64,000 nt of DNA from Holophagales bacterium (GTDB lineage: Bacteria; Acidobacteriota; Thermoanaerobaculia; Multivoradales; Multivoraceae). The notes below the pieces were generated by a model that saw only the letters and a program-made list of their open reading frames with translations, was not told the DNA's origin and made no database searches. Position 1 is the first letter of the stretch. Each line of letters begins with the position of its first letter. A program made the position numbers and the translations under genes. Positions 1 to 33,867 of this stretch are shown here, in pieces. Where the stretch lies: NCBI GenBank assembly GCA_009845425.1, contig VXZQ01000001.1, positions 194,363 to 258,362 on the forward strand, in the 5' to 3' direction.

Positions 1-1962
1 TGGCAGGGCTTCCGCGACGGCCGCTCGGACATCCTCGCCCGCCGCCATGACGGTTCGCGCTGGTCGGCCGAGGAGACCGTCTCGACCTCGCCCGCCAACG
101 ACTGGACACCAGCGGTCGCGGCGTGCAGCGACGGTTCCGTCCACGTCGCCTGGGACACCTACGACCAGGGCAACTACGACGTGCTGATGCGGCGCTTCGA
201 GGGCGGCGCCTGGGGCGATGTCGCGCCGGTCGCCGACACCCCGAAGTTCGAGGCTCACGTCTCGGTCGCCTGCGACCGCCGCAACCGGCTCTGGGCGGCC
301 TGGAACGAGAGCGGTTTCCAGTGGGGCAAGGACTCGGGCTTCGAGATCTACAAGGAGGCGACCCGCCTCTACGAATGGCGCACCCTCGCCGTGGCGGTGT
401 GGGACGGCGTCCGCTGGCAGGTGCCCGAAGTCGACGTGAACGAGCTGCTCGAACGGGAGCTCCCCGAGTACATCCCGGGATTCAACGACCTGCCGGTGCT
501 CCGGGTCGACGCCGGCGGGCGGATGTGGCTCTTCTTCCGCCACCGCACGATCCGAGCCCGCGACACGCCGGACTTCACGCCGGCCCACCGGGCCGCCTGG
601 CAGATCTTCGGCACCGCCTACGTCGGCGGCGAATGGACCCGGCCGCTCCACCTGCCGTTCAGCCGCGGCCGCCAGGACGTGCGCTGGGAGCTGGCCTCGG
701 ACGGCCGCGGCAACCTGTTCGCGGCCTGGCCGACGGACAACCGGGACTCCGAGGAGTACCTCTTCGAACACTCCTCGATCAACGCGGCGAAGCTGCCGGC
801 GCTGACCGGCGAGGCCACGCCGCCCCGGCTCGTCGACCCGGACATCCGCGAGTACCACACCTATCCGGTCCATCCCAACGAAGCCGAGGATGTCGCCCGT
901 ATCCGTGCCTACACGATCGAGTCCGAAGGCCGCACTTACCGCATCTACCGCGGCGACACCCACCGCCACACCGAGTTCTCGCACGACGGCCTGAACGACG
1001 GCTCGTTGATGGAGGCTTACCGCTACGCCCTGGACGCCGCCGAACTCGACTTCCTCGGCGTCAGCGAGCACAACAACCGCGGCGGCCAGGACATCGAGTA
1101 CGTCAACTGGCTGCACCCGCAGATCGCCGACATCTTCCGCCTGCCGGGGAGCTTCGTGCCGGTCTACACCTACGAACGCAGCATCAGCTATCCGGACGGC
1201 CACCGGAACATCCTCTCGTCCAGGCGCGGCATCCCGACCCTGGAGATCACGGAGGCCGAACGACGGCACGAGGAGGGCGCGGCGCGGCTGTTCGCGTACC
1301 TCCGGGAGCACGACGCGATCTCGATCCCCCACACCTCGGCAACCGGCATGGGGACCGACTGGCGCGACAACGACCCCGAGGTGGAACCTCTCGTCGAGAT
1401 CTACCAGGGCGACCGGACTTCAGCCGAGTACGAGGGCGCTCCCCGGGCCGCCACCCGCGAGAAACCGATCGGCCAGCAGGGCGGCTTCCAGCCCGCCGGT
1501 TTCGTCTGGAACGCCTGGGCGAAGGGCTACAAGCTCGGCGTGCAGGCCGCGTCTGACCACATCTCGACCCACATCTCCTACGCCGCCACCATCGCCGAGG
1601 ACTTCACCGCCGGAGGCCTGCTCGACGCGATGAAGCAGCGGCACTCCTACGCCGCGACGGACAACATCATCCTCGACTACCGGATGCGCGCGAACGGCCG
1701 GGAGTACCTGCAGGGCGACATCGCCGAGGTCTCGGGGCGATTCGAGCTGGTCGTCAAGGTGATCGGCACCGCCCGCATCGAGCAGATCGACATCATCCGC
1801 GACCAGACCTTCCTCTACAACCGCCAGAACCTCGACCAGGAAGTGGACCTGACCTTCGTCGACAGCGACGTCGAGCCCGGCGAGCACTACTACTATGTGC
1901 GGGTGATCCAGAAGAACCGGGAGATCGCCTGGTCGTCGCCGATCTGGGTGACGGTCGAGTAG
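1..1962 (+). CDS. DUF3604-family (PHP-like metal-dependent phosphoesterase fold) protein with N-terminal BNR/sialidase-like repeats; 5' end lies outside the window
   Basis: Frame 1 is open from nt 1 and is the same frame as the listed ORF 181..1962. The translation has BNR-like S-x-D-x-G-x-W repeats (SxDGSVHVAWD), His-rich metal-site motifs (GDTHRHTEFSHDG, GVSEHNN) and the C-terminal '...EIAWSSPIWV' signature. That signature is shared with the C-terminus of the DUF3604 domain in the gene at 27545..31012 (EMAWTSPIWY). TAG stop at 1960-1962. Confidence 0.7.
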   Translation, partial: WQGFRDGRSDILARRHDGSRWSAEETVSTSPANDWTPAVAACSDGSVHVAWDTYDQGNYDVLMRRFEGGAWGDVAPVADTPKFEAHVSVACDRRNRLWAAWNESGFQWGKDSGFEIYKEATRLYEWRTLAVAVWDGVRWQVPEVDVNELLERELPEYIPGFNDLPVLRVDAGGRMWLFFRHRTIRARDTPDFTPAHRAAWQIFGTAYVGGEWTRPLHLPFSRGRQDVRWELASDGRGNLFAAWPTDNRDSEEYLFEHSSINAAKLPALTGEATPPRLVDPDIREYHTYPVHPNEAEDVARIRAYTIESEGRTYRIYRGDTHRHTEFSHDGLNDGSLMEAYRYALDAAELDFLGVSEHNNRGGQDIEYVNWLHPQIADIFRLPGSFVPVYTYERSISYPDGHRNILSSRRGIPTLEITEAERRHEEGAARLFAYLREHDAISIPHTSATGMGTDWRDNDPEVEPLVEIYQGDRTSAEYEGAPRAATREKPIGQQGGFQPAGFVWNAWAKGYKLGVQAASDHISTHISYAATIAEDFTAGGLLDAMKQRHSYAATDNIILDYRMRANGREYLQGDIAEVSGRFELVVKVIGTARIEQIDIIRDQTFLYNRQNLDQEVDLTFVDSDVEPGEHYYYVRVIQKNREIAWSSPIWVTVE

Positions 1963-2721: not shown

Positions 2722-2734
2722 GACGCGCCGTCTA

Positions 2735-8188: not shown

Positions 8189-8206
8189 CGGCGGGAGAAA
8201 GAAACG

Positions 8207-9400: not shown

Positions 9401-9404
9401 CCCG

Positions 9405-10664: not shown

Positions 10665-10677
10665 GCTGACGAGCCGC

Positions 10678-12677: not shown

Positions 12678-13151
12678 ATGTTCAAGCACTCCATCGATTC
12701 AGAGCCGGTAGAGATCGACGCCCCGATCAAAGTGGCCTGGGACCTCCTCGTCGACCTCGACCGGTACCACGAATGGAACCCCTTCGCCCGGACCTACAGG
12801 AAGACCGATGTACGCGTCGGCTCCACGATCCACTTCGACGTCAAGCTCGACCGCTACAACCGGAAGCAGACCGAGCGCCTCGCGATCATCGAGCCGCCGA
12901 CTCGACTGGCCTGGAGCACGAACGTCGCCCTTGGCCTCGTCAAGGCGCTCCGCGTCCAGCGGCTTGAGAAGCGAAGCGAGACGAGTTGCACCTACTTCAA
13001 CACCGACACCCTCGAAGGCCCCCTAGCACCCGTGGCCCGCCTCCTGTTCGGCGGCGCCATGCACCGCGGCTTCGCGGCCGTCGGCAGGGCGCTCAAGCAG
13101 ACCGCGGAGGAACGGCACGGAGACCGGAGCCCAGATGAAGCATCGCCTTAG
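12678..13151 (+). CDS. SRPBCC (polyketide-cyclase/Bet v1-like) family protein
   Basis: About 157 aa. AGGAGG RBS 6 nt upstream. The [17 protein letters not shown] start is typical of SRPBCC/START-like small proteins. Confidence 0.6.
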
Positions 13152-15471: not shown

Positions 15472-15474
15472 GGC

Positions 15475-20972: not shown

Positions 20973-20994
20973 GGTGTTTCTTCCTCCACCAATT

Positions 20995-21011
20995 TGTTGA
21001 CGGCGTCAACA
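20995..21011. promoter_or_regulatory. TetR-type operator 1: 17-bp palindrome TGTTGAC-ggc-GTCAACA
   Basis: Perfect 7-3-7 inverted repeat in the 89-bp divergent intergenic region between the FG-GAP operon and the TetR gene. Confidence 0.6.
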
Positions 21012-21021
21012 TACACCCCTT

Positions 21022-21038
21022 TGTTGACAATGTCAACA
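21022..21038. promoter_or_regulatory. TetR-type operator 2: 17-bp palindrome TGTTGAC-aat-GTCAACA
   Basis: Second perfect copy, 27 bp centre-to-centre from operator 1. It contains a TTGACA -35-like hexamer. Confidence 0.6.
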
Positions 21039-21061
21039 CCGTCCCCCTGCCATAATCGCTC

Positions 21062-21664
21062 ATGGCCGAACGGGCCCGTACCTACCACCACGGTGACCTG
21101 CGCGCGTCGCTGGTCGAGGAAGCCGCCGCCATGATCTCGGAGGGCGGCGCCGCCAGCGTGACGATGCGGGCCATCGGCAGTCGCCTCGGCGTTTCGCGAG
21201 CCGCGCCCTACCGCCACTTCCCGGACAAGACGGCGCTACTGGTCGCGGTCGCGGTCGAGGGGTTCCGGCGCCTCAACCAACGTCTCCGGGGCGACGGCAC
21301 CGGCGCATCGGGATCGAGCGTGGAGCGGCTCCGGCACATGGGAGAACAGTACGTCCGCTTCGCCCTCGAGAACCCGGCGCACTACCGCCTGATGTACGGC
21401 AGGGAGGCGCTGGCGCGCCAGGACCACCCCGAGCTGCGGCAGGCAGCCGGCGCCCTCCTCGAGCACCTGATCGGCGTGATCCGCCTACACCAGCAGCGCG
21501 GCGAGATCGAGCGAGCGGATCCGCGGGCCCAGGCCTACGTGGCCTGGAGCGCGGTGCATGGGCTGGCGTCGCTCCTGATCGAGCGGCAGATCGACCCGAA
21601 CGTCGACGTGAACGCGCTGCTCAGCCAGACCACTCAGACACTGCTTGACGGAATGCGGGACTAG
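21062..21664 (+). CDS. TetR/AcrR-family transcriptional regulator
   Basis: N-terminal HTH (SVTMRAIGSRLGVSRAAPYRHFPDKTALL) typical of TetR. 200 aa. Confidence 0.85.
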   Translation: MAERARTYHHGDLRASLVEEAAAMISEGGAASVTMRAIGSRLGVSRAAPYRHFPDKTALLVAVAVEGFRRLNQRLRGDGTGASGSSVERLRHMGEQYVRFALENPAHYRLMYGREALARQDHPELRQAAGALLEHLIGVIRLHQQRGEIERADPRAQAYVAWSAVHGLASLLIERQIDPNVDVNALLSQTTQTLLDGMRD

Positions 21665-21668
21665 GGAC

Positions 21669-22451
21669 TCAGCCCCACTCAGCCCTCCACACCTCCTGGT
21701 TGTCCGTCGGGACCCTCTTCGCCCGGCGAGCGTTGGGAGTCCGGAGTTCGACATTGACCCGCCGCGCGATCGCCCGGGCGATGTCCTCCTGAATCTGAAT
21801 CTCGGAAATCGTGCCGAGGACCCGGTCGTAGTGGCGGGACCAGAGATGGATGCCGTCGGCGACCCGGATGAGCTGAACCGAGATCCGCACGCGGTCGCCG
21901 GACCTTCGCACGCTGCCTTCGAGGATCGCCGACACGCCCGCCTTCCTTCCGAACCGGGGCGCGCTCAGGCCGGCCAGCCCCTGGTCGAAGGAGGAGGTCC
22001 GGGACAGGACCCGCAGTCCATCGACACGCACCAGCGCCTCGATGACCTCCTCCACCAACCCCTCGCAGAAGAAGTCCTGTTCCGGGTCGGAACTCATGTT
22101 CGCGAAGGGCCTGATCGCGATCGATCCTCCGACCGGGGTCTTCACCGGAGCCGTGAAGCGGTAGCCACGGCCGGGAACCGTGACGACGTACTGCGTCTCC
22201 CCATCCTGACCCAGGATCTTCCGCAGCACGGACAGGTTGTGCGTGAGGTTGCTCTCGGTGACGTTGGTGTCCGGCCACACCATCTCCATCAGCTCATCCT
22301 TGTGCACGAGACGGTCGCGGTTCTCGATCAGCACCTTCAGCGTCTGGAACACCTTCGGCCGCACCGGAACGACCCGCCCGCTGCGCAGCAACCGGCGCTC
22401 GGCAGCATCGAGAAGAAACGGCCCGAAGGCGTAGGTGGGACGCTCTGCCAC
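21669..22451 (-). CDS. winged-helix transcriptional regulator (OmpR/CadC-type DNA-binding domain at the N-terminus)
   Basis: N-terminal YAFGPFLLDAAERRLLRSGRVVPVRPKVFQTLKVLIENRDRLVHKDELMEMVWPDTNVTESNLTHNLSVLRKIL...VPGRGYRF matches the trans_reg_C winged helix. No receiver domain. Confidence 0.7.
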   Translation of the reverse strand: MAERPTYAFGPFLLDAAERRLLRSGRVVPVRPKVFQTLKVLIENRDRLVHKDELMEMVWPDTNVTESNLTHNLSVLRKILGQDGETQYVVTVPGRGYRFTAPVKTPVGGSIAIRPFANMSSDPEQDFFCEGLVEEVIEALVRVDGLRVLSRTSSFDQGLAGLSAPRFGRKAGVSAILEGSVRRSGDRVRISVQLIRVADGIHLWSRHYDRVLGTISEIQIQEDIARAIARRVNVELRTPNARRAKRVPTDNQEVWRAEWG

Positions 22452-22551
22452 CAGGAACCTCCGTCAGGGACCGGACGCCGGTCTTCACGCGGGTTGCACT
22501 CAGCGGCGCCGGGATTTGATTCGGATTCCTGGATCCTAGCAGCCTCGCGTC

Positions 22552-24342
22552 CTAGCGGCTCTCGGGCAGCGCGAAGACGTACAAGTTGCCGCCCCGGGGG
22601 CGGGCGGCGCCCTCCGGCGTGTGCCTGAGACTCCCCGGCCCGGTCGATATGGCGACGTACTGCCGACCGTCCACGGCGTAGGAGATCGGGTAGCCCATCG
22701 CCGGCGCGCCCAGGTTCACTTCCCACAGCACCTCGCCCGTCTCGTGGTCGAAGGCGCGGAAGGAGCCGCTCGAGTCGCCACCGAAGATCAGGCCGCCGCC
22801 CGTCGCCACGACCGAGTAGGTCGCGCCCTCGGTCTCGAACAGCCACTTCGTTTCGCCGGTCACGGCGGAGATCGCATACACCGTGCCGAGGTACTCCTCG
22901 CCGGGCGCCTGGATGTGGTCCGCGGCAAGGTTGTAGATCGCGACCTGCTGTTCGAACGCCTGCGCCCTCGGACTGTTCGTGTCCCCTGTCACCAGCATCC
23001 GCGCGCACATGTTGCGCAGTGGGTAGTACATCGTCCGGGTCAGCGGGCTGTAGGAGCCGGCTTCCCAGTCCTTGCCGCCGATCCAGGTCGGGCACACGAG
23101 CATCTCCTGGTCGAGCTCCGTGAAGATGATCTCGGTGTTCTCGACCGCCCGCCCCGTCGTTTCGTCGATGTCGACGACGACGTTCTGCGGCACGGTCGGC
23201 CGCGCCCACAGGAACTCGCCGGTCTCACGGTCCAGCGTATAGACGAAACCGGTCTTGCCGGGGATGCCCGTCATCAGCTTGCGGGTCTCGCCCGGTTCGA
23301 GGCCCTCCCGGATCCAGCGCACGGCCTCCGGGTCGGGCGACACCGGAAGGTCGACCAGGATGCGTTCGAACGGATGGTCGAGGTCCCAGTGGTCGTTCAG
23401 GTGCTGGAAGTACCACCGGATCTCGCCTGTGTCGGCCTCCAGCGCCAGGGTCGAGTTGTGGTACAGGTGCGTCAACTCCGTTCCACCCAGCATGAACTTC
23501 GGCGCCGGCGACGTAACGGCGGTGCCGAAGTAGATGAGTTCGAGCTCCGGGTCGTAGCTGGGCACCATCCAGGTGCCGACGTGGTGCCGCTTCTCGAACG
23601 GCACGTCGCCCCAGGTCTCGTCCCCGGGCTCGCCCGGCGCCGGCATCGTGCGGGTCCGCCAGAGCTCCTTTCCCGTCAGCGCGTCGAGCGCGATCATGAT
23701 GCAGGACTCCGGCCCGCCCCAGGGACGGCAGCTCCTCCCCGAAACGACGCGGCCATCCGCGACGATAGGGCCCGAGCTGTGGGTGGCGGGATTGACCTGC
23801 CAGTCCAGGATCTGTGTCTCCCAGACAAGCTCTCCGGTCTCGGCGTCCAGGGCGAAGGCGTGGTTGTCGTCGCTGTTGTTCAGGATCAGCCGGTCGTAGA
23901 TCGCGATGTTCCGGTTGTTCTTCGCGTTGAAGCCGACCTGCGCGTAGAGGCCCTCGGGCTGCTCCCGCGTGTAGCGCCAGATGAAGTCTCCGGTCGTCGA
24001 GTCGAACGCCTCGATCGTGTCCTCGAACGACGGAACGTAGAGAACCCCGTCGTAAGCCAGGGGCGTGATCTCGGAGGTCCCGACGGCTATCTCCCGTGAC
24101 CAGACCAGGCCCAGCCGGCCGACGTTCTCGCGGTCGACCTGGTCGAGCGGGCTGTAGCCCCAACTGTCGAACGTGCGACGGAACATCAGCCACTCCGACG
24201 CCGGTGGACTCCGGAGCATCTCGTCCGTGACCGGCACGAACGCCGATGTCGCGTCCTGGGCCGGGAGTTCGGCGCTGATTCCGATGCTCAGGGCCAAGGC
24301 CAGAACCGCCAGCCCGCGGCTGGGCCGGCGCGCACTCTTCAC
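22552..24342 (-). CDS. PQQ-dependent alcohol (methanol/ethanol-family) dehydrogenase, signal peptide
   Basis: W-motif beta-propeller repeats throughout (GxxYVP, DATTGDFIW, DAETGELVW, DALTGKELW...). The preferred start is GTG at 24342, preceded by GGAGG at a 7-nt spacing, and it yields a clean signal peptide (VKSARRPSRGLAVLALALSIGISA). The longest ORF (to 24507) would overlap the divergent gene. Confidence 0.8.
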   Translation of the reverse strand: MKSARRPSRGLAVLALALSIGISAELPAQDATSAFVPVTDEMLRSPPASEWLMFRRTFDSWGYSPLDQVDRENVGRLGLVWSREIAVGTSEITPLAYDGVLYVPSFEDTIEAFDSTTGDFIWRYTREQPEGLYAQVGFNAKNNRNIAIYDRLILNNSDDNHAFALDAETGELVWETQILDWQVNPATHSSGPIVADGRVVSGRSCRPWGGPESCIMIALDALTGKELWRTRTMPAPGEPGDETWGDVPFEKRHHVGTWMVPSYDPELELIYFGTAVTSPAPKFMLGGTELTHLYHNSTLALEADTGEIRWYFQHLNDHWDLDHPFERILVDLPVSPDPEAVRWIREGLEPGETRKLMTGIPGKTGFVYTLDRETGEFLWARPTVPQNVVVDIDETTGRAVENTEIIFTELDQEMLVCPTWIGGKDWEAGSYSPLTRTMYYPLRNMCARMLVTGDTNSPRAQAFEQQVAIYNLAADHIQAPGEEYLGTVYAISAVTGETKWLFETEGATYSVVATGGGLIFGGDSSGSFRAFDHETGEVLWEVNLGAPAMGYPISYAVDGRQYVAISTGPGSLRHTPEGAARPRGGNLYVFALPESR

Positions 24343-24430
24343 TGCGACGCCTCCGTTCCTCGCTGTCTTCAAGACGAACCGGGGACTGTAGCAGCAGCGA
24401 CAGGCGGTGAAGTAGCATCCCGCCTTCCGC

Positions 24431-26572
24431 ATGAAGTCGTTGACGCGCCTCGCCTGCTCGCTGGCCGCGATGTCGTTCCTGAGCGCCGGCCCCGCCGCCC
24501 GGGACACAGCCGCTCAGGAGACCGCCTTCGTACCGGTCACCCAGGAGATGCTGAACGACCCGGAACCGGGTCAGTGGCTGCACTGGCGGGGCACGCAGAA
24601 CGCCTGGGGCTACAGCCCGCTCGACCAGATCACGACGGACAACGTCGGCCGGCTTCAACTGGTCTGGGCGTGGGCGATGGACGACACCGGTCCCCAGGAG
24701 GCCGCGCCGCTCATCCACGACGGCGTCATGTACCTGCCGAATCCCGGCGCGGTGGTTCAGGCCCTCGACGCCGCCACCGGCGACCTGCTCTGGGAGTACC
24801 GGCCGGAGCCGGTGGGTGACGGATCGGGCGCCTTCGGCCGCGGCGTGCAGAAGAACATCGCGATCTTCGGCGACCGCATCTTCGGCGCGAGCCCCGCGGC
24901 GACGATCTTCGCGCTCGACGCCAGGAGCGGCAAGCTGATCTGGGAGACGAAGACCGCCGACACGAGCCTCGGCTACCGCTACACCGCCGGCCCCATCGTC
25001 GCCAACGGCAAGCTGGTCACCGGCATCACGGGCTGCGGCCGCTACAAGGACGACGTCTGCTTCATCACCGGCCACGATCCCGAAACCGGCGAGGAGCTCT
25101 GGCGCACGTCGACCATCGCGCGCCCCGGCGAGCCGGGGGGCGACACCTGGGGCGACCTGCCGCTCCGCTTCCGCGCCGGCAGCGACGCCTGGATCGCAGG
25201 CAGCTACGACCCGGAACTGAAGATCGTCTACTGGGCCACCTCCCAGGCCAAGCCCTGGGCCCGCTCCGTGCGCGGCACGGACGGCGACGCGCTGTACACG
25301 AACTCCAGCCTCGCGCTCGATCCCGACACCGGGGAGCTGCTCTGGTACTACCAGTACCTGCCCGGCGAGACCCACGACATGGACGAGGTGTTCGAGACGC
25401 TCCTCATCGACGTCGACGGCCGGAAGAAGCTGTACAAGATGGGCAAGCTCGGCATCCTCTGGCAGCTCGACCGGGAGACCGGCGAGTTCCTGGACGCGAT
25501 CGACATCGGCTACCAGAACCTCGTCGACGTGAATCGCGAGACGGGTGAGGTGACCTACCGCCCGGAACTCATTCCGGAGATCGGCGTCGAGATCAACATG
25601 TGCCCGAGCACGTCCGGCTTCAAGGGCTGGCGCGCCATGTCCTACGACCCGAACACCGGCGCGCTCTACATCCCGGTGACGATGAACTGCGAACTGGCGA
25701 CGTTCGGCCCGGTCGAGCGCGTCCTCGGCGGCGGCGGCGCGGGTCCGGTGAAGCGCATCAACACGCTGCATCCCTACTCCGGCGGCAACCTGGGCGAACT
25801 GCTCGTCATCGACGTGCGCGAGGGGGACATCATGTGGCGGCACCGCACGGAGTCGCCGATCAACACGGCCGCGCTCGCGACCGGAGGCGGCGTCGTCTTC
25901 GCTGGCGACTACGACCGCTACGTCTACGCGTACGAGGCGAGGACCGGCGGGATCCTCTGGCAGACGCGGCTACCCACTTCGGCCCAGGGCTTTCCGGTGT
26001 CCTACCTCGCCGGCGGCCGCCAGTACGTGGCAATCCCGGTCGGAACGGGCGGCGCCAGTTGGGCGACGATGCTGCCGCGCGACCTGACTCCCCACATCCG
26101 GCGGCCAACCAACGGCAACTCGATCCACGTGTTCGCCTTGCCGGCGGATCTGCCGGTTGCGACGGGGCGGAGCCGGACGGCAGCGACCGACCGCGACGGG
26201 GTAGCGGTCGCGGCCGGCACCTCCCTGACCGTCTGGGACGGCGTCTACACCGTCGAGCAGGCGGAGCGAGGCACCAGGCCGTATGTCCAGAACTGCGCCA
26301 CCTGCCACGGCGAGGACCTCGGCGGCGGCAGCAACTCCCCGGGTCTGGTCGGCGTCAGCTTCCAGTTCCTGTGGGGAGGCAAGACGCTGCACGAGCTGTA
26401 TGAGGCGATCCGGACCACCATGCCGACCGACAATCCGGCCAGCCTGCCGCGCGAGACCTACCTCGACATCCTGACCTACATGATGCAGGTGAATCAGTTC
26501 CCGGCGGGCGACGGGGAACTCGACGCCGAGGCTCTGGGCGACATCCTGATCACCGAAGAACCCGGCGCGTAG
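24431..26572 (+). CDS. quinohemoprotein alcohol dehydrogenase (PQQ beta-propeller plus C-terminal cytochrome c domain)
   Basis: Signal peptide and PQQ-ADH propeller motifs, then a C-terminal CATCHGEDLGG (CxxCH) heme-binding domain. Confidence 0.85.
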   Translation: MKSLTRLACSLAAMSFLSAGPAARDTAAQETAFVPVTQEMLNDPEPGQWLHWRGTQNAWGYSPLDQITTDNVGRLQLVWAWAMDDTGPQEAAPLIHDGVMYLPNPGAVVQALDAATGDLLWEYRPEPVGDGSGAFGRGVQKNIAIFGDRIFGASPAATIFALDARSGKLIWETKTADTSLGYRYTAGPIVANGKLVTGITGCGRYKDDVCFITGHDPETGEELWRTSTIARPGEPGGDTWGDLPLRFRAGSDAWIAGSYDPELKIVYWATSQAKPWARSVRGTDGDALYTNSSLALDPDTGELLWYYQYLPGETHDMDEVFETLLIDVDGRKKLYKMGKLGILWQLDRETGEFLDAIDIGYQNLVDVNRETGEVTYRPELIPEIGVEINMCPSTSGFKGWRAMSYDPNTGALYIPVTMNCELATFGPVERVLGGGGAGPVKRINTLHPYSGGNLGELLVIDVREGDIMWRHRTESPINTAALATGGGVVFAGDYDRYVYAYEARTGGILWQTRLPTSAQGFPVSYLAGGRQYVAIPVGTGGASWATMLPRDLTPHIRRPTNGNSIHVFALPADLPVATGRSRTAATDRDGVAVAAGTSLTVWDGVYTVEQAERGTRPYVQNCATCHGEDLGGGSNSPGLVGVSFQFLWGGKTLHELYEAIRTTMPTDNPASLPRETYLDILTYMMQVNQFPAGDGELDAEALGDILITEEPGA

Positions 26573-26608
26573 CTGACGTAGGACACAGCTCGCCGGTATT
26601 GCGAACTG

Positions 26609-26633
26609 CTACGGATCGTATTACGATCCGTAG
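26609..26633. promoter_or_regulatory. 25-bp near-perfect palindrome CTACGGATCGTA-t-TACGATCCGTAG, putative operator of the RHH antitoxin
   Basis: 12-bp arms perfectly complementary around a single central nucleotide. It ends 1 bp before the ATG of the RHH gene. Confidence 0.6.
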
Positions 26634-26634
26634 C

Positions 26635-26910
26635 ATGCACGCACTCTCCGTCAAGCTGCCGACCGAGCTCCACGCTGCCCTGGCAAGCGAAGCGCAACGA
26701 CGCAACATCACGCGGTCCGCTCTGCTGCGAGAGATCGTCGGGGAAGCGCTCGACCGCGTTCCGACGCCAGCGACGCCGAGTTGCGCCGAACTGGCTAGCG
26801 ATCTGATTGGCGCCGTTCGAAGCGGCCGCCGCGACTTGGCGACGAATCCCGATCTTCTCGAGCAGGCTGTCGTCTCGGACGCTCGACGTGCCGCCGACCG
26901 TCGTCGCTGA
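26635..26910 (+). CDS. vapB: ribbon-helix-helix (CopG/VapB-type) antitoxin
   Basis: MHALSVKLPTELHAALASEAQRRNITRSALLREIVGEAL is a classic RHH fold. Its stop overlaps the downstream PIN gene. Confidence 0.75.
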   Translation: MHALSVKLPTELHAALASEAQRRNITRSALLREIVGEALDRVPTPATPSCAELASDLIGAVRSGRRDLATNPDLLEQAVVSDARRAADRRR

Positions 26911-27310
26911 TACCGGTCCGATCGTCGCGCTGCTCGACGCGGATGAAGCTCATCACGAGTGGGCCCGGGAACAGTTCCAAACGCTCGCGGCGCCACTGCT
27001 CACCTGTGAGGCAGTCCTCTCCGAAGCCTCCTTTCTCCTGGCGCGCGTCGGTGAGGATCCGAGCCTGCCGGTGACGCTCGTCGAACGAGGAGTACTGAAC
27101 GTCACCCGAGTACTCGCGGCGCCAGAGGACGTTCTCGCCGTCGGTCGCCTGATCCGTCGCTACCGCAACGTGCCGATGTCCCTCGCCGACGCCTGCCTGG
27201 TGCGGATCGTGGAACGCTCGGACCAGGCTTCCGTGCTAACCCTCGACTCCGACTTCCGGATCTACCGGCAGGGCGACCGCCGCGTGATTCCCGTGCTCAC
27301 TCCTTCGTAG
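26888..27310 (+). CDS. vapC: PIN-domain ribonuclease toxin
   Basis: Conserved acidic residues in the PIN order (VADTGPIVALLD, DEAHH, TCEAVLSE, SLADACLV, TLDSDF). The GTG at 26888 overlaps the antitoxin 3' end by 23 nt. The listed ORF start at 26807 would overlap far more. Confidence 0.75.
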   Translation: MPPTVVADTGPIVALLDADEAHHEWAREQFQTLAAPLLTCEAVLSEASFLLARVGEDPSLPVTLVERGVLNVTRVLAAPEDVLAVGRLIRRYRNVPMSLADACLVRIVERSDQASVLTLDSDFRIYRQGDRRVIPVLTPS

Positions 27311-27497
27311 CTTCATCGAAGTCGGGCACGGTCTCGACCAGATGGGCCAGACTGCCGAAACGGAACGTCTTCGATGGCACGGGAACCAGCCTCACAGCGG
27401 GCCTGCCCCTACGGGCGATGATCACCTCGTCGCCCGCTTCGGCGGCGACGATGATCTTCGACAGTTGCGACTTGGCTTCGTGCACGTTGACGAGCAT
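27297..27497 (-). CDS. Phd/YefM-family type II antitoxin-like protein (orphan)
   Basis: The 66-aa product MLVNVHEAKSQLSKIIVAAEAGDEVIIARRGRPAVRLVPV... matches the Phd/YefM-type antitoxin N-terminus. AGGAGG RBS 6 nt upstream of the ATG (27495-27497). Hidden inside a longer spurious ORF (27297..28133). Confidence 0.65.
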   Translation of the reverse strand: MLVNVHEAKSQLSKIIVAAEAGDEVIIARRGRPAVRLVPVPSKTFRFGSLAHLVETVPDFDEATKE

Positions 27498-27544
27498 CGC
27501 TGTTCCTCCTGGCCGCCAGCCCCCAACCGGAGGCCCAAACGAGT

Positions 27545-30500
27545 CTATTCGTCGACAGCTAGCGGAATCGCCTCCACCAACAGCGCCAGCGCGCTCTGCA
27601 ACGAAGCATCGGCGTGCCCGCCGAACGAACCCTCGTACAGTCCGAGCCGGACGACCACCATCTCGTGTGACGGCACGATGATCGTGCTCTGACCGCCTGC
27701 GCCCTGCATGCTGAACGCGCTGTTCGGCAGTGACGGGTAGCGCTTGCTGCCGCCGCGCGGAGAGTTGTTGATCCAGAAGAAGCCGCCGTAGATCGGCCGG
27801 CCGTCGGCGACCCAGGCCGGCGCGGGAGTGCTGACGAACTCGACGAAGCCCTCGGGCAGCACGCGCTCGCCGGTCGGCGAGACGCCATCGTCCAGGTAGA
27901 GCTGGCCCAGCCGCGCCCAGGTGCGGCCGGATCCGAAGCCGTAGCCGTTCAGGAGGAAGTTGCCGTAGGGATCCGCTTCGGCGACGAAGCGCCGGACGCC
28001 GATCCGGTCGAAGAGGTGCTTCTGGGGGAACTGGTGGTAGTTCTCGCCGCGGCCCTCGACCGCCAGGCGCACCAGGTGGTTGGTCAGGATCGGGTCGCAG
28101 TTTCGGTAGCGGCCGATCGTGTTCGGCGGCCACTGCGGCGGCCGTTCGGTGGCCCAGAGGTGGGAGTTCACCGTGCCGGTGTAGAGGTAGAGGTGGTCCG
28201 GATAGCCCATGGCCGCCTCGTCGTACTCCGGGTCTCCGGCGTTCACGCAGCGCAGACCGCTCGACATGCGGAGGATGTCCTGGATGCGGATCGTGCCGCG
28301 GACGTCGTCCGGGTCCTCGTGCCAGGAGTCGACCGGCGCCAACTGGTCGAGCGTGTACTCGCCCTGCTCGATCAGCACGCCCATCAGGGTCGCCGACAGG
28401 CTCTTGTTCATCGACCAGCTCTCTAGCGGCGTGTCCTTGTCGATGCCCTCGCGGTAACGCTCGGCGATGAGGCGGCCGCGATGGAGCACGACGAACGCCA
28501 GGGTCATCGCCTCCGGCTCGAAGGCAGCCTCAGCGGCTGCCGCCAGCTTCTCCTCGTCCACGTCGTCGGAAAGCCGCTCGTCCGGTAGCGCGTCGCCCAT
28601 CGGCCAAGGTGCGTTCGCGTCGAGCGTGCTCGCCACCGGCACCGTCTCGTAGAACGGCGCGTCCTCCCCCTTGGGCAGCGCGACGCAGCCCTGGTCGCCG
28701 TGGAGCACCGCGGTCCGCGTCACGCCGGTGTCGGTGGTGATGTGAACACGCTGGTTCTCGCGGTCCAGCACCCGACCCGGCAACCGGTCGCGGTACCGGT
28801 GGCGGGAGGTGAAGCCGCCGATCTGCGTCCAGCCGTCCTCGAAGTCGAGCCCGGTCAGGAAGACCGCCGAGCACAGGACCTTGGCGAAACCGGCGGCTTC
28901 GTGCTCGATGAAGTCGCCCGGCGGCGGTACGCGGACGGTGTCCAACTCGTGTTCCTGGCCTCGCGCCACCAGGCTCTCGCCCAGCGTCGGTTCCTGGGCG
29001 GCGGACGCCGGTCGATACCAGATCGGCGACGTCCAGGCCATCTCCTGGATCGTCTCGGGGTAGGAGCCGTCCGAGCACACGGCCGGCCGGTCTTGCGCGG
29101 CGAGGCGCCGGCAGTCGTGCCAGCTCCAGCGCAGGCTGGGGTTCTCGACCACCCGCAGATAGTAGTAGGCGTGCTGGCCGGGATCGAACGTCTCGTCGCG
29201 ATGGACGGTGCAGAGGCTGTCGTGGCCCTCGCCGTTTCGTTCGCCGGTCTCGGGGTCGACGCTCGCCCCGTTGTCCGGCGAACCGGCGATCGGAATGACC
29301 TGGGTGCGGCCCGTCCCGTCGGCGTCGATCCAGCCCTTGACGAGCTGGAGTTGCTGCAGGAGTCCGGCGCCGTCCGCCGGGTCGCGGGCGGCGAAGGCGA
29401 GGAAGGTCGGCGCGGCGGCGTCGCCGGCCTCCGGCAGATCGCCGCCCATCGGCACGCCGCCGGCGTATGCCTGCTCGAGCAGATCGGTCTGGTCGCACAG
29501 GTTCCCGGCATAGCCCCAGCCGCCGAAGAACCGCGGGCGGATCCGCGGACCCGACGTGCCGAACACCTCGCGGCGCTCCATCGCCTCGAAGATCGCGTCA
29601 CGGGAGTTCTCCACCGCCCAGACGCCGGCCAGACCGCCGGCGTTGCCGTCGATGCCGCTGGTCAGGAGACCCGGCTGAAGGCGCTCCTCGGGCGTCGACT
29701 CGACGGAAACGGCGCCGCGCCAGTCCTCTTCGGCCACCGCCCCCGGGGTCGCCGTGTGCGTGTCGGTCGAGGCGATGATGCCGAGCTTGACCGGATTCAA
29801 CCCGGTCTCCATCTCCTCCTCCAGGCCGACGACGAGCGCGGAGCGAACGAAGTCCGTCCGGTCCACGCAACCGGCCCCGAGCATGCCCTGGTTGCCGTTC
29901 TCGCCCTCCGGACACTCCTCGGTGCGCAACGTGGTTTCGCCCGAGAGCAGGGACTGGACCGTCTCTTCGCGGCCCAGCACCCGCACCGCCTCCACGTCGC
30001 AGAGCTCGTCCGGCTCGGCGAACACGGAGGACAGGCCGTTGATGCATTCGGATCCGCCCTTGTGCTGGAAGATCTCGATGATCGGCTCCCGTTCCAGCCG
30101 CTTCTCCGCGTACGCGCGGCGCGCTTCCATCGTTCCGTCCAGGCCCCGGTACGGCGCCATCCGGCCGTTCGCGAGATTGCTGTTGTGCGGGATCGTCAAG
30201 TAGTCGCAACCGGGCCTCGCCGACCCGTCGCCGCAGACCTCGTCGAGCCGCTGCCAGAGCAGGCTGTCCGTCGGGGCGTCGATGTACGAGACCGGCAGCT
30301 CCGGCACATCCGCGCTCCGGAAGACGACGTTGCGGTGGTAGTTCGAGATCCCCGGCGTGCCGGTGTACTCGTAGCCCACGAAGGTGGTGAAGCTGCACGT
30401 CTCCGTCCGGTCGTAGGCGTCCTCGGCCGCTTCGATGATCTCCTGCCATGGGCTCATTGCCCATTCGCGGCAGAGCGACCCATCCTCGCCGCACAATTCC

Positions 30501-31012
30501 TCGGTCCTGCGCGGCGTCTCGGTCGTGATGACGGCGCCGAGCATCTGCATCCCCACCCGCTGGTCCGAGCGGAACGTCGTGCAGAACTCCGAGCCGTAAC
30601 GAGGCGACTCCGGATCCCGGCACAGGCGGCGTTCGCCCAGAAACTCGCCGTGGTCGGTCACCGCCACGAAGTCGAGCGGCCGATCGATCGTGATGCTGCC
30701 CGTAGGCCTGCCGTCCTCGCCGATCGGCCAGAACGGGATCGCCTCGCCCTTCGCGAACCGGTACGCATGCGCCGGCGTCGCGCCCGTGCTGTTGGCCGCC
30801 GCGTCGAACGAGAAGCTGGTGTGGACATGGAGATCGCCGAACAGCGCCTGGCGGAGCGGCGTGGCGTCGCGGCAGGCAGGCCGATGTTCGGTGCGCGTGA
30901 TGGCGGCGCCGGAGACGCTTCCGTCCCTGCCTCCGTCCTCGCCCGGCGCCGCACAGGCGGGAACGGCGAACACGAGCAAAGTCAACAGGAGGCGGATCGA
31001 ATCGGATCTCAT
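27545..31012 (-). CDS. DUF3604 domain protein fused to a C-terminal serine beta-lactamase/esterase-like domain, secreted
   Basis: Signal peptide. DUF3604 metal-site motifs (GDLHVHTSFSFDA, VAVTDHGEF, ...WTSPIWY) in about the first 700 aa. The C-terminal part has S-x-x-K (WSMNKSLSATLMG) and other class-C/PBP-like serine hydrolase features. 1155 aa. Confidence 0.8.
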   Translation of the reverse strand: MRSDSIRLLLTLLVFAVPACAAPGEDGGRDGSVSGAAITRTEHRPACRDATPLRQALFGDLHVHTSFSFDAAANSTGATPAHAYRFAKGEAIPFWPIGEDGRPTGSITIDRPLDFVAVTDHGEFLGERRLCRDPESPRYGSEFCTTFRSDQRVGMQMLGAVITTETPRRTEELCGEDGSLCREWAMSPWQEIIEAAEDAYDRTETCSFTTFVGYEYTGTPGISNYHRNVVFRSADVPELPVSYIDAPTDSLLWQRLDEVCGDGSARPGCDYLTIPHNSNLANGRMAPYRGLDGTMEARRAYAEKRLEREPIIEIFQHKGGSECINGLSSVFAEPDELCDVEAVRVLGREETVQSLLSGETTLRTEECPEGENGNQGMLGAGCVDRTDFVRSALVVGLEEEMETGLNPVKLGIIASTDTHTATPGAVAEEDWRGAVSVESTPEERLQPGLLTSGIDGNAGGLAGVWAVENSRDAIFEAMERREVFGTSGPRIRPRFFGGWGYAGNLCDQTDLLEQAYAGGVPMGGDLPEAGDAAAPTFLAFAARDPADGAGLLQQLQLVKGWIDADGTGRTQVIPIAGSPDNGASVDPETGERNGEGHDSLCTVHRDETFDPGQHAYYYLRVVENPSLRWSWHDCRRLAAQDRPAVCSDGSYPETIQEMAWTSPIWYRPASAAQEPTLGESLVARGQEHELDTVRVPPPGDFIEHEAAGFAKVLCSAVFLTGLDFEDGWTQIGGFTSRHRYRDRLPGRVLDRENQRVHITTDTGVTRTAVLHGDQGCVALPKGEDAPFYETVPVASTLDANAPWPMGDALPDERLSDDVDEEKLAAAAEAAFEPEAMTLAFVVLHRGRLIAERYREGIDKDTPLESWSMNKSLSATLMGVLIEQGEYTLDQLAPVDSWHEDPDDVRGTIRIQDILRMSSGLRCVNAGDPEYDEAAMGYPDHLYLYTGTVNSHLWATERPPQWPPNTIGRYRNCDPILTNHLVRLAVEGRGENYHQFPQKHLFDRIGVRRFVAEADPYGNFLLNGYGFGSGRTWARLGQLYLDDGVSPTGERVLPEGFVEFVSTPAPAWVADGRPIYGGFFWINNSPRGGSKRYPSLPNSAFSMQGAGGQSTIIVPSHEMVVVRLGLYEGSFGGHADASLQSALALLVEAIPLAVDE

Positions 31013-31117: not shown

Positions 31118-32458
31118 ATGAAGCACTCGCTGCCGGTGGTTTCCGCCGTGGCCTTCGCCTCCCTCGCCGCCAGCATCGCGGCCCAGCCCACCCTGAGCGA
31201 CGACGTGCGCTCGAGGTGGGAAGCCTCCTGCATGATCCGGCACGACAAGTTCGACTACGTGCTGCCGGGCGCCATGCGGCGCAACGACATCGACATGTGG
31301 ATCGTGACCGACCGGGGCCGCGGCACCCAGCCGATGACGCGCGACTTCGGCATCTCGACCGTCAACGGCCAGAACTTCTTCATCTTCACCGACCGCGGCG
31401 GCGACCGCATCGAACGGATCCAGCTCGGCCGCGAGAACGATCTGGCCACGGAATGCGGCGCCTACGACCGGTTCGGACGGTTCGAAGAGCTGCGGTCGAT
31501 CGTCGAAGAGCGCGATCCTCAGACCATCGGTCTCAACTACCTCGCGGTTCCCTACAGAGCCGAAGGCCTCCACGTAGCGGACGGACTCACGCACACGGAC
31601 TTCAAGTTCCTCGCGAGCGAACTCGGCGAGAAGTACGCGGCCCGCTTCACCTCGGCCCAGCACCTGATCGCCGACTTTCGCGGAGAGCGGGTCGCCAGCG
31701 AAATCGTCGAGTTCGCGAAGGTCGGCGACCTTACCCGGCGGCTCCTGGAGCGAGCGCTGTCCAACGAGGTCATCACCCCGGGCAAGACGACGCACAACGA
31801 CGTCGCCCGCTGGCTGGAGCAGAAGCTGCACGACCACTACCTGCTGCGCGGCTGGTTTCCGACCGTCTACACCCACCTCCCGGACGGCAGCGAGATCGGC
31901 GGCACCGAGCGCGTGATCCAGCGCGGCGATGTCCTGCAGATCGACTGGGGCACCGGCCGGAACCACTTCTCGACCGACATCAAGCGTTTCGCCTACGTCC
32001 TGCGCGAAGGCGAGACCGAGCCGCCCGCCGGCGTGCTGAACACGTTCGCCGAATCGAAGAAAGTGCAGGAGATCATCCGCAAGCACGTCCGCTCGGGCCG
32101 CACCGGCCGCGAGCAGCTCGACGAACTGAAGCAGATCCTCCGGGACGCCGGCTACGTCTACACCGAGCTGGAAGTGGCCGCCCAGGACGCGCCCGGCATC
32201 GAGGTCAACGTCGGCATGCACGGGGCCGGCAACATCGGCCACGAGATGGCCGCGAGCCTGTTCGAGATCTACCCGGAACGCACGAAGTACGTCGTCCGCC
32301 CCAACTCGATCATCTCCCTCGAGTACATCGTCTTCATGCCGGCCGAGGAATGGGACGGCAACAAGATCCCGATCAACGTCGAGGAGAACGCCCTGATCAC
32401 CGAACGCGGCATCGAGTGGCTGCATCCGCCGCAGGCACGGGTGCTGGTGATCCGGTGA
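31118..32458 (+). CDS. secreted M24-family (creatinase/prolidase-fold) metallopeptidase, paralog 1
   Basis: Signal peptide. A Pita-bread metal ligand pattern in the correct order (D in GDVLQIDWG, D in FSTDIKR, H in GHEMAA, E in SLEYIVF, E in NVEENALITERG). AAGGAG RBS. Confidence 0.75.
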   Translation: MKHSLPVVSAVAFASLAASIAAQPTLSDDVRSRWEASCMIRHDKFDYVLPGAMRRNDIDMWIVTDRGRGTQPMTRDFGISTVNGQNFFIFTDRGGDRIERIQLGRENDLATECGAYDRFGRFEELRSIVEERDPQTIGLNYLAVPYRAEGLHVADGLTHTDFKFLASELGEKYAARFTSAQHLIADFRGERVASEIVEFAKVGDLTRRLLERALSNEVITPGKTTHNDVARWLEQKLHDHYLLRGWFPTVYTHLPDGSEIGGTERVIQRGDVLQIDWGTGRNHFSTDIKRFAYVLREGETEPPAGVLNTFAESKKVQEIIRKHVRSGRTGREQLDELKQILRDAGYVYTELEVAAQDAPGIEVNVGMHGAGNIGHEMAASLFEIYPERTKYVVRPNSIISLEYIVFMPAEEWDGNKIPINVEENALITERGIEWLHPPQARVLVIR

Positions 32459-32474
32459 CGCGGCGGCGGGTGAC

Positions 32475-32512
32475 GACGCTATCGCCCTCTATAGTGACTT
32501 CAACTCACTTCA
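32475..32512. repeat. 38-bp leader/promoter repeat, copy 2
   Basis: Exact copy of 31067..31104 upstream of M24 paralog 2. Confidence 0.7.
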
Positions 32513-32526
32513 CAAGGAGAACCAGG

Positions 32527-33867
32527 ATGAAGCGTCCGCTCCCGACCGTTCTCGCCACGGTCCTGGCGACCATCGCCATCGCCGCACCGGTTTCGAGTGC
32601 CGAACCGGACGACGTGCGCTCGAGGTGGGAAACCTCCTGCATGATCCGGCACGACAAGTTCGACTACGTCTTGCCGGGCGCCATGCGCCGCAACGACATC
32701 GACATGTGGATCGTGATCGACCGGGGCCGCGGCACCCAGCCGATGACGCTCGACTTCGCCATCTCCACGGTCAATGGCCAAGGGTTCTTCATCTTCACCG
32801 ACCGCGGCGGCGACCGCATCGAACGAATCCAGCTCGGGCCCGAGACCGATCTCGCACGGGAATGCGGCGCCTACGACCGGTTCGGACGGTTCGAAGAGCT
32901 GCGGTCGATCGTCGAGGAGCGCGATCCTCAGACCATCGGCCTGAACTATCTCGCGGTTCCGTACGAGAGCGAAGGCCTTCACATCGCGGACGGCCTCACG
33001 TACACCGACTTCAAGTTCCTCACGAGCGAACTGGGCGAGAAGTACGCGGCCCGCTTCACCTCGGCCCAGCACCTGATCGCGGACTTCCATGGCGAGCGGG
33101 TCGCCGGCGAGATCGTCGAAATGGCCAAGATCGGCGACCTCACCCGGCGGCTCCTGGAACGGGCGCTCTCCAACGAGGTCATCACGCCCGGCAAGACGAC
33201 GCACAACGATGTCGCGCGCTGGCTGGAGCAGAAGCTGCACGACCACGATCTGCTGCGCGCCTGGTACCCGACGGTCTACAGCCACCGTCCGGACGGCAGC
33301 GAGATCGGCGGCACGGAGCGCGTGATCCAGCGCGGCGATGTCCTGCAGATCGACTGGGGCGGCGGCCGGAACAACTTCTCGACGGACATCAAGCGCTTTG
33401 CCTACGTCCTGCGCGAGGGCGAGACCGAGCCGCCCCCCGGCGTGCTGCGGACGTTCGCCGAATCGAAGAAAGTGCAGGAGATCATCCGCAAGCACGTCCG
33501 CTCGGGCCGCACCGGCCGCGAGCAGTTCGACGAACTGAAGCAGCTCATCCGGGACGCGGGCTACATCTACACCGAGCTCGAGGAGGCGGGTCCCGACGCG
33601 CCCGGTATCGAGGTCAACGTCGGCATGCACGCCGCCGGCAACATCGGCCACGACATGGCCGCCAGCCTGTTCGAGATCTTCCCCGAACGGACGAAGTACG
33701 TCGTCCGCCCCAACTCGATCATCTCGCTCGAGTACATCGTCTTCATGCCGGCCGAGGAATGGGGCGGCAACAAGATCCCCATCAACGTCGAGGAGAACGC
33801 GTTGATCACCGAGCGCGGCATCGAATGGCTCCACCCGCCGCAGTCGCGGGTGCTGGTGATTCGCTAG
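32527..33867 (+). CDS. secreted M24-family metallopeptidase, paralog 2
   Basis: Nearly identical over most of its length to paralog 1 (same motifs, the N-terminal signal peptide differs). Confidence 0.75.
   Translation: MKRPLPTVLATVLATIAIAAPVSSAEPDDVRSRWETSCMIRHDKFDYVLPGAMRRNDIDMWIVIDRGRGTQPMTLDFAISTVNGQGFFIFTDRGGDRIERIQLGPETDLARECGAYDRFGRFEELRSIVEERDPQTIGLNYLAVPYESEGLHIADGLTYTDFKFLTSELGEKYAARFTSAQHLIADFHGERVAGEIVEMAKIGDLTRRLLERALSNEVITPGKTTHNDVARWLEQKLHDHDLLRAWYPTVYSHRPDGSEIGGTERVIQRGDVLQIDWGGGRNNFSTDIKRFAYVLREGETEPPPGVLRTFAESKKVQEIIRKHVRSGRTGREQFDELKQLIRDAGYIYTELEEAGPDAPGIEVNVGMHAAGNIGHDMAASLFEIFPERTKYVVRPNSIISLEYIVFMPAEEWGGNKIPINVEENALITERGIEWLHPPQSRVLVIR

Follow-up and report, generated by a model that had tools for sequence, protein, structure and literature searches.

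The window analysed here is a 64,000-nucleotide stretch of a Holophagales bacterium genome (assembly GCA_009845425.1, contig VXZQ01000001.1; G+C content 68 %) that carries on its minus strand a gene joining two hydrolase families. The open reading frame (ORF) runs unbroken from 27545 to 31012, without an internal stop, and encodes 1155 amino acids (aa). A Pfam scan assigns residues 53-668 to DUF3604 (PF12228; E=1.2e-155, 519.8 bits against a cutoff of 20.4, model positions 3-591 of 591) and residues 837-1123 to the beta-lactamase family (PF00144; E=1.5e-14, 54.3 bits against a cutoff of 27), and an NCBIfam scan of the fused protein returned one meaningless 15.8-bit match and nothing else. A sequence-only reading of this DNA had described a single gene for a secreted protein with both domains and an S-x-x-K serine hydrolase motif, and this description holds: both domains score above cutoff, the motif is SMNK (residues 867-870), the frame is continuous and the N-terminus has a signal sequence that predicts export. 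The fusion is a genuine new combination of known families, recent and lineage-specific, and gives a weak clue to the function of DUF3604, a large, widespread, exported family for which we found thousands of homologs. No characterised DUF3604 member was found in our literature search, which gave a single incidental mention.

The predicted signal sequence ends in Cys20, a residue conserved in at least 90 % of DUF3604 homologs in the alignment, and an AlphaFold2 (AF2) model of the N-terminus has a helix at residues 4-19 followed by a disordered stretch. The cysteine closes a putative lipobox that reads LAGC, LTGC or LAAC in many homologs and VPAC, with proline at -2, in the window. The signal is probably of the lipoprotein type.

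The DUF3604 half is modelled as a PHP-type (polymerase and histidinol phosphatase) metallohydrolase fold. Its AF2 model (predicted local distance difference test score, pLDDT, 79.7; predicted template modelling score, pTM, 0.86) contains the distorted (beta/alpha)7-barrel known from solved proteins of the PHP superfamily, and its C-terminal part gave weak beta-sandwich matches in Foldseek. The motifs GDLHVH (residues 59-64), TDHGE (119-123), YEYT (214-217), PHNSN (275-279), QHKG (316-319) and TDTH (416-419) supply the metal-ligand pattern of the superfamily (HxH, D/H-x-E, E, H, H, DxH), with D60, H62, H64, D120, H121, E123, E215, H276, H317, D417 and H419 invariant in 30 sequences. Sixteen cysteines are likewise invariant in the DUF3604 alignment, and this part of the protein ends on WTSPIWY (residues 660-666). 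The only significant match to a solved structure was 3E38 (Foldseek E=7e-6, probability 1.0), at a low TM-score of 0.26/0.46.

The remainder of the protein corresponds to a complete, mature serine hydrolase. Its parent family measures about 500 aa, and the conserved N-terminal subdomain of about 160 aa that characterises the family is retained in the fusion. The domain scores above the gathering threshold of PF00144, carries the S-x-x-K and Y-x-N (YRN, residues 969-971) motifs expected of PF00144/COG1680 enzymes, and keeps the invariant columns of the hydrolase alignment (S199, K202, Y301, N303 and G436-A437-G438). The third conserved box of the class C enzyme AmpC is K315-T-G; because this K-T-G is replaced by G-A-G-G-Q (residues 1104-1108), which is invariant in the family, the protein should not be filed as a class C beta-lactamase. 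Among solved structures, PIB-1 (8RLJ) is the closest to the C-terminal half both in sequence (phmmer 1.1e-17) and, for an AF2 model with a pLDDT of 73.3, in fold (Foldseek 6e-15), which places the domain in a PIB-1/NylB-like subgroup. NylB also matched (phmmer about 1e-5, Foldseek about 1e-13), and further Foldseek matches were Lsa45, EstG and family VIII esterases. The modelled C-terminal half thus resembles amidases and esterases such as PIB-1, NylB and family VIII enzymes.

The exact 1155-aa protein has three NCBI accessions (MYA06681.1, MYG32345.1 and MYI78486.1, all from 'Holophagales bacterium' metagenome-assembled genomes, MAGs) and is present on at least eight contigs. Over its 3468 nt the gene is 100 % identical in four other contigs (L004-L007), which come from GenBank (two assemblies), ENA (one) and a separate Logan assembly of run SRR9841440. 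The continuity of the ORF and its identity in several assemblies rule out a frameshift or two-gene artefact in this genome, and a one-off assembly error is an unlikely origin of the fusion. We take the MAGs to be sponge-associated from their record names (ENGE20-1, SB06xx bins), which probably belong to a study of the sponge Ircinia ramosa; no publication describing the MAGs was found in the literature search.

How the two domains came to share a frame is seen from a comparison with 11 close relatives: nine loci from named genomes and the syntenic contigs L002 and L003. Each of the 11 has a DUF3604 that ends in ...WYRP(E)-stop and a hydrolase read in another frame, starting with a lipoprotein-type signal (..LLAGC, ..LLGGC or ..LLPGC). 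A base-level alignment gives the window bases at the junction as ...TGG TAT CGA CCG GCG|TCC GCC GCC CAG GAA..., and at this point the relatives have a stop codon, then a spacer and the sequence for a lipoprotein signal peptide. The lipobox of the serine hydrolase (L-[AS]-[GA]-C) is deleted in the fused gene. The window is shorter than its relatives by 83-200 nt, and by 721 nt relative to L009; none of these differences is divisible by 3, as is required for bringing the downstream frame into register. The breakpoints lie in GC-rich CCG/GCC microrepeats.

The region between the paired genes is hypervariable, ranging from overlapping stop and start codons to about 640 nt. In L002 and L008 the DUF3604 stop either overlaps the hydrolase start or is 8 nt away from it; in L002 the DUF3604 gene ends at 10022, which is the start base of a 514-aa hydrolase (TGATG overlap). 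The hydrolase of L003 begins 78 nt downstream of DUF3604, with MRAGPAFLAAALLAGC... In L009, the relative with the most similar DUF3604 (96.6 %), an extra gene at 5288-5908, encoding a hydrophobic product of about 205 aa (MKPDHRALVLAVALVYAV...), stands between the two. By parsimony over these aligned loci, we take the fused state to be the derived one.

Searches for the fusion itself point the same way. The whole protein was searched against 5.8 billion proteins, and the figures that follow hold among the matches listed. The best matches were DUF3604-only proteins of about 670 aa (79-90 % identical, 58 % query coverage), and residues 669-1155 retrieved only stand-alone PF00144 proteins of about 500-540 aa (97-100 % coverage). 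An exhaustive phmmer search of 1.84 billion cluster representatives with the full fusion as query had both halves spanned by 0 of its best 150 matches. Homolog searches covered the best 120-150 matches, a depth at which very remote fusions with scores under about 345 bits would go unnoticed. An ancient or widespread two-domain architecture is ruled out among the matches listed for either half or the whole protein.

Pfam annotation of the longest matches did recover other fusions: Peptidase_M28 with the PF00144 hydrolase (P0444), and HupE/UreJ_2 with DUF3604 (P0380 and P0414). P0444 has 1184 aa, with Peptidase_M28 N-terminal to a 55 %-identical member of the same serine hydrolase family. M28 peptidase is the only other partner detected for the hydrolase half, which hints at peptide-related work for the hydrolase, as P0380 and P0414 hint at metal supply for DUF3604.

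Adjacency of the unfused genes was scanned in one genome per species (GTDB), with the hydrolase-family alignment as query, the best 80 loci retained and tblastn then run for DUF3604 and M24 peptidases. At all 11 loci that had flanks and a hydrolase at least 88 % identical, DUF3604 lies immediately upstream and an M24 gene is divergent from it. Where the hydrolase was at most 77 % identical, tblastn found DUF3604 within 6 kb in 0 of 62 loci. The close loci are labelled Holophagales, Candidatus Multivorans (classified in the Acidobacteriota, class Thermoanaerobaculia), Thermoanaerobaculia, Vicinamibacteraceae and Acidobacteria bacterium; near-identical loci (L008-L015 and L026, hydrolase identity 88-96 %) bear inconsistent taxonomy labels across submissions. 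The hydrolase is also absent beside the distant DUF3604 genes of L088 (Pseudomonadales), L090 and L092 (among them Myxococcales), whose neighbours are unrelated, and in L001 an 88 %-identical DUF3604 lies between PMSR and TetR genes without it, which makes 0 of 4 other DUF3604 contexts. The distant loci and contexts together rule out a conserved operon across phyla. The adjacency of DUF3604 and serine hydrolase is confined to one narrow clade.

In L001, the DUF3604 gene adjoins TetR, FG-GAP and DUF5916 genes that are the same as those at 15.5-21.7 kb of the window. Compared with window positions 15472-31012, L001 is without a block made up of an OmpR-type regulator, two pyrroloquinoline quinone (PQQ) dehydrogenases and the serine hydrolase, which suggests that the block is an indel unit.

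Both halves were compared codon by codon with unfused relatives. Against the nearest of these, the ratio of non-synonymous to synonymous substitution rates (dN/dS) lies at 0.08-0.15 in either half, with dS at about 0.2. The window branch has 8 non-synonymous and 19 synonymous codon changes in DUF3604 and 3 and 9 in the hydrolase, each in the range that unfused lineages also show. Invariant positions, catalytic ones included, are free of these changes, and all invariant columns of both family alignments are kept.

Table 1. Positions of the fused gene, its parts and selected neighbours in the window.
Feature	Position	Strand	Basis
Fused ORF, 1155 aa: signal peptide, DUF3604 (PHP-type), short linker, complete mature serine hydrolase	27545..31012	minus	ORF list; Pfam
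Predicted N-terminal signal sequence, residues 1-20, MRSDSIRLLLTLLVFAVPAC, ends in Cys	30953..31012	minus	alignment, comparison of N-termini, AF2 model
DUF3604 domain, residues 53-668, predicted PHP-type barrel and C-terminal beta-sandwich	29009..30856	minus	Pfam, invariant columns, AF2, Foldseek
Fusion junction and linker, residues ~669-680, ASAAQEPTLGES	28973..29008	minus	DNA alignments; breakpoint near 29005/29006
Complete mature 'CubicO/class-C-like' serine hydrolase, residues 669-1155	27548..29008	minus	stand-alone homologs, alignment, AF2, Foldseek
PF00144 match, residues 837-1123, with SMNK 867-870, YRN 969-971, GAGGQ 1104-1108	27644..28504	minus	Pfam, alignment to PIB-1
M24 peptidase paralog 1, 446 aa, signal peptide	31118..32458	plus	divergent from fused gene; 87 % identical to paralog 2
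M24 peptidase paralog 2, 446 aa	32527..33867	plus	Pfam PF00557; comparison with paralog 1
M24-like paralog 3, divergent, 442 aa	33825..35153	plus	BLASTP E=3e-70, 34 % identical to paralog 2; no Pfam family
Phd/YefM antitoxin	27297-27497	minus	gene tables of L004-L007
PIN toxin	26807-27310	plus	Pfam PIN
3' part (653 aa) of ~945-aa protein	1..1962	plus	repeat-rich N-region, divergent PHP/DUF3604-like domain, WSSPIWV end
Sulfatases	~36.2-38.0 kb and 42.9-44.4 kb		Pfam scan

The genes around the fusion are listed in Table 1. The head-to-head arrangement with three tandem M24 paralogs that the sequence-only reading had described is present, and an M24 gene upstream is conserved in all close relatives. 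The PF00557 match fell on an overlapping ORF (31216-33867) that ends with paralog 2. The M24 gene at this position is single-copy in L002 and L003, and the window has two 87 %-identical tandem genes (31118-33867); paralogs 1 and 2 look like a recent tandem duplication beside the recent fusion. On the other side, a toxin-antitoxin pair sits between the fused gene and a PQQ dehydrogenase. L002 has no such pair, its PQQ dehydrogenase coming straight after the hydrolase, so the pair in the window looks like an insertion specific to the lineage. The locus is flanked by two divergent PQQ-dependent dehydrogenases at 22552-26572 of the window, of which one has a cytochrome c domain. A similar PQQ/cytochrome c dehydrogenase lies at 2842-4938 of the Pseudomonadales contig L088, about 2 kb from its DUF3604 gene, which may be coincidence.

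The sulfatases noted earlier are indeed nearby, two in number, and the housekeeping gene mgsA separates the nearest from the fused-gene locus. Other window genes encode TetR and OmpR-type regulators, FG-GAP proteins, DUF5916, a PhoD-like phosphatase, a sulfotransferase and a sulfite-oxidase-like enzyme. At 8189-11655 and 13027-15471 lie genes for a DUF1214 protein, a PF13469 sulfotransferase, a short-chain dehydrogenase and a large PhoD-like phosphatase; with the two sulfatases and the sulfite-oxidase-like gene, they make the region rich in sulfur- and phosphate-ester enzymes, with no obvious operon. No glycoside hydrolase, lyase, or Sus-like or other polysaccharide-utilisation gene occurs among about 30 neighbouring ORFs of the window, a gene content that rules out a polysaccharide or glycoconjugate locus. 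The role in degrading sulfated or esterified glycoconjugates once suggested for the fusion consequently finds no support, with mgsA standing between locus and sulfatase and the C-terminal half being amidase/esterase-like. If anything, the partners (M24, the M28 fusion and NylB-like folds) point to peptide or amide substrates.

The gene at the start of the window had been read as a second DUF3604 gene fused to BNR/sialidase-like repeats. Its end, WSSPIWV, does share the W-[ST]-SPIW-[VY] signature with the WTSPIWY of the fused gene, and the PHP motifs of the two genes are collinear. The DUF3604 match itself is partial, covering residues 373-476 and model positions 141-252 of 591, and weak (24.6 bits, E=1e-5). 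The C-terminal half matches NCBIfam NF038032 (CehA/McbA) over model positions 3-314 of 315 (E=3e-13) and, at 49.8 bits against a curated cutoff of 80, stays outside the family; by these profile scores the protein appears to be a relative of the CehA/McbA metallohydrolases and not a member. The DUF3604 half of the fused gene had no NF038032 match in NCBIfam. The BNR part of the claim did not survive: no BNR family matched at E<=10 and no S-x-D-x-G-x-x-W motif was found, so that neither profile nor motif searches detect such repeats. The N-region is probably a propeller, and homologs of about 945 aa, which form a widespread family, carry PF12228, some with PF07494 Reg_prop propeller repeats. This architecture is conserved family-wide and is therefore not a rare fusion.

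Directly after this gene, the plus-strand ORF 1975-2721 encodes a membrane protein with a VHTLIGIDH start, like H-x-x-x-G-x-D-H, and a His-rich loop (HVHEHAGGVVHAHEHPAAGSHRH). It is reminiscent of HupE/UreJ Ni/Co transporters at a resemblance that is not statistically significant; with no Pfam or NCBIfam match and a BLASTP E-value of 2.3 against P0380, HupE/UreJ identity is not established. Further on, one plus-strand ORF (2573-5815) combines E1-E2_ATPase and HAD hydrolase domains (a P-type ATPase) with a C-terminal SPFH/Band 7 domain, and two further SPFH/Band 7 genes follow (5809-6783 and 6594-7712). This ORF may be an unusual fusion or a gene-boundary issue.

We consider it probable that a recent, lineage-specific deletion fused two neighbouring genes and that both halves keep their ancestral activities. 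The ancestor, like every close relative sampled, would have had two co-directional neighbours, an exported DUF3604 protein and, in another frame, a class-C-beta-lactamase-like lipoprotein hydrolase of about 510 aa. The loss of about 83-200 nt then took away the last DUF3604 codon or codons with the stop, the spacer, the hydrolase start codon and the hydrolase lipoprotein signal, and it placed the mature hydrolase in the DUF3604 frame. Alignments and models show that the predicted result is one polypeptide with both catalytic sets intact. Its product would be exported by the DUF3604 signal and consist of PHP barrel, beta-sandwich, a linker of about 10 residues and mature serine hydrolase. The DUF3604 half would use metal-activated water to hydrolyse a phosphoester or (carbamate) ester-type bond, and the C-terminal half would be a PIB-1/NylB-like acyl-enzyme amidase or esterase. 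Both would act outside the cytoplasm, tethered to each other instead of separately lipid-anchored, and the fusion may have been tolerated because the partners already shared a compartment. Most likely, to judge from sequence and models, the halves keep the separate extracytoplasmic activities of their relatives; a substrate common to both is possible and not indicated.

Several points count against this deletion account. The chemistry of DUF3604 is read from fold and motifs alone, and the TM-score of its 3E38 match is low. The proline at -2 of VPAC makes the lipoprotein status of the DUF3604 signal uncertain, and one half could suffer from the loss of the hydrolase's lipid anchor or from steric limits set by the short linker. 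Selection after the fusion is not measurable because all fused alleles are identical, and the low dN/dS largely reflects pre-fusion history. Independence among the fused contigs is limited, since a single study population appears to be their source.

A Rosetta-stone fusion is possible, and we hold it tentatively: DUF3604 and the hydrolase, perhaps with M24, would work one after the other on the same extracellular substrate, for example a modified peptide or amide, and their joining would have been selected for channelling or stoichiometry. The order M24, DUF3604, hydrolase is kept in 11 of 11 close loci with flanks, the overlap or 8-nt gap in L002 and L008 suggests co-translation, and the deletion restored the frame while removing exactly the signal peptide; both halves are also under purifying selection, and the hydrolase family has an M28 fusion in P0444. 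The components do occur elsewhere as separate proteins, but fusion or adjacency does not recur across distant lineages: all 62 loci with a hydrolase at most 77 % identical, as well as L001, L088, L090 and L092, lack the adjacency, and the best 150 matches among 1.84 billion representatives include no protein spanning both halves. The pair is split by a third gene in L009, spacer length is hypervariable, and one deletion in three would restore the frame by chance.

A doubtful extension of this idea makes the fusion a working bifunctional exo-enzyme and the M24/DUF3604/serine-hydrolase cluster of the clade a dedicated module that breaks down a modified peptide or amide of host or dietary origin. 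In this module DUF3604 would take off a blocking ester or phosphoester group, leaving backbone cleavage to the PIB-1/NylB-like amidase and M24. If true, the fusion would be the first clue to DUF3604's substrate class that experiments could pursue.

An origin as a slightly harmful accident that precedes gene loss is improbable; one half, most likely the hydrolase that lost its own signal and anchor, would then be misfolded, mislocalised or inactive. A single population with zero allelic diversity and a very short linker would fit such an origin, and drift could fix slightly deleterious deletions in host-restricted symbionts; against it, the gene has no stops, frameshifts or changes at invariant catalytic positions, and non-synonymous relative to synonymous changes are not raised on the window branch. 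An assembly or sequencing artefact, in which a GC-rich microrepeat collapsed and the true genome has two genes, is highly improbable: the breakpoints do lie in CCG/GCC-rich low-complexity sequence and the fused contigs are apparently related samples of one project, but an identical junction recurs in at least three MAG proteins deposited separately and in two GenBank, one ENA and one Logan assembly, and a reproducible loss of 83-200 nt that restores the frame is an atypical assembler error.

The deletion account bears on how far the fusion can be used to infer function. It had been put forward as a functional hook for DUF3604; because it is a young deletion accident joining clade-specific neighbours, it is unsuited as strong guilt-by-association evidence. 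The hook is a weak one, the deletion being population-specific, the adjacency clade-restricted and the pair split in L009. Better leads are the PHP-type metal site, the recurrent HupE/UreJ_2-DUF3604 fusions with the metal supply they suggest, and the CehA/McbA relatedness of the divergent second copy. The locus is a clean natural example of a microhomology-flanked deletion turning two lipoprotein genes into one exported two-domain protein.

A comparison with known proteins places each half among its relatives. Stand-alone DUF3604 proteins (P0001 and the 669-aa P0242, MDE2692128.1, from related Acidobacteriota) are 79-90 % identical to the fusion over residues 1-668 among listed representatives and share its signal sequence, PHP motifs, 16 cysteines and W-T-SPIW-Y end, whereas they stop after ...WYRPE and lack the serine hydrolase domain. 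Other fused proteins (P0444, P0380 and P0414) resemble the window protein in that each half tolerates fusion; their partners differ from its own, and none joins DUF3604 to the serine hydrolase.

For the DUF3604 half, 3E38 (BVU_3505 of Bacteroides vulgatus, a structural genomics entry described as a PHP-like metal-dependent phosphoesterase, a function predicted only, from the entry title) likewise combines a PHP barrel with a second beta-sandwich domain. The two are 10 % identical, and DUF3604, at about 620 aa against 343 aa, differs in having large insertions and many disulfide cysteines. Functional parallels come from Sb-PDE of Sphingobium TCM1, an exported, zinc-containing enzyme that cleaves phosphodiesters (PMC5460133), and from CehA/McbA, which cleaves carbamate esters with essential histidines and for which the carbaryl hydrolase of Pseudomonas sp. 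C5pp was found to be periplasmic (PMC8292978). Both are exported like the window protein, with signal peptides reported, and have PHP-like histidine motifs, though Sb-PDE belongs to PF02811 and the window half to PF12228.

For the hydrolase half, PIB-1 (PA5542 of Pseudomonas aeruginosa) is an atypical carbapenem hydrolase with an AmpC fold (bioRxiv 10.1101/2024.03.05.583521). Its S-x-x-K and Y-x-N motifs align with those of the window protein at an identity of only 22-25 %, and its third box reads GIFGQ where the window has GAGGQ. Unlike PIB-1, the window protein has the extra conserved N-terminal subdomain, with PF00144 starting about 170 residues in; PIB-1 hydrolyses carbapenem, and beta-lactam hydrolysis by the window protein is not indicated. 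The 6-aminohexanoate-dimer hydrolase NylB (1WYB, 2ZMA), a serine amidase acting on linear amides, belongs to the same fold family at about 20 % identity, and it is cytoplasmic whereas members of the window hydrolase family are lipoproteins. The catalytic domain of the polyamide-4 hydrolase Nyl4Apx is in turn reported to resemble both 8RLJ and NylB (PMC13269358).

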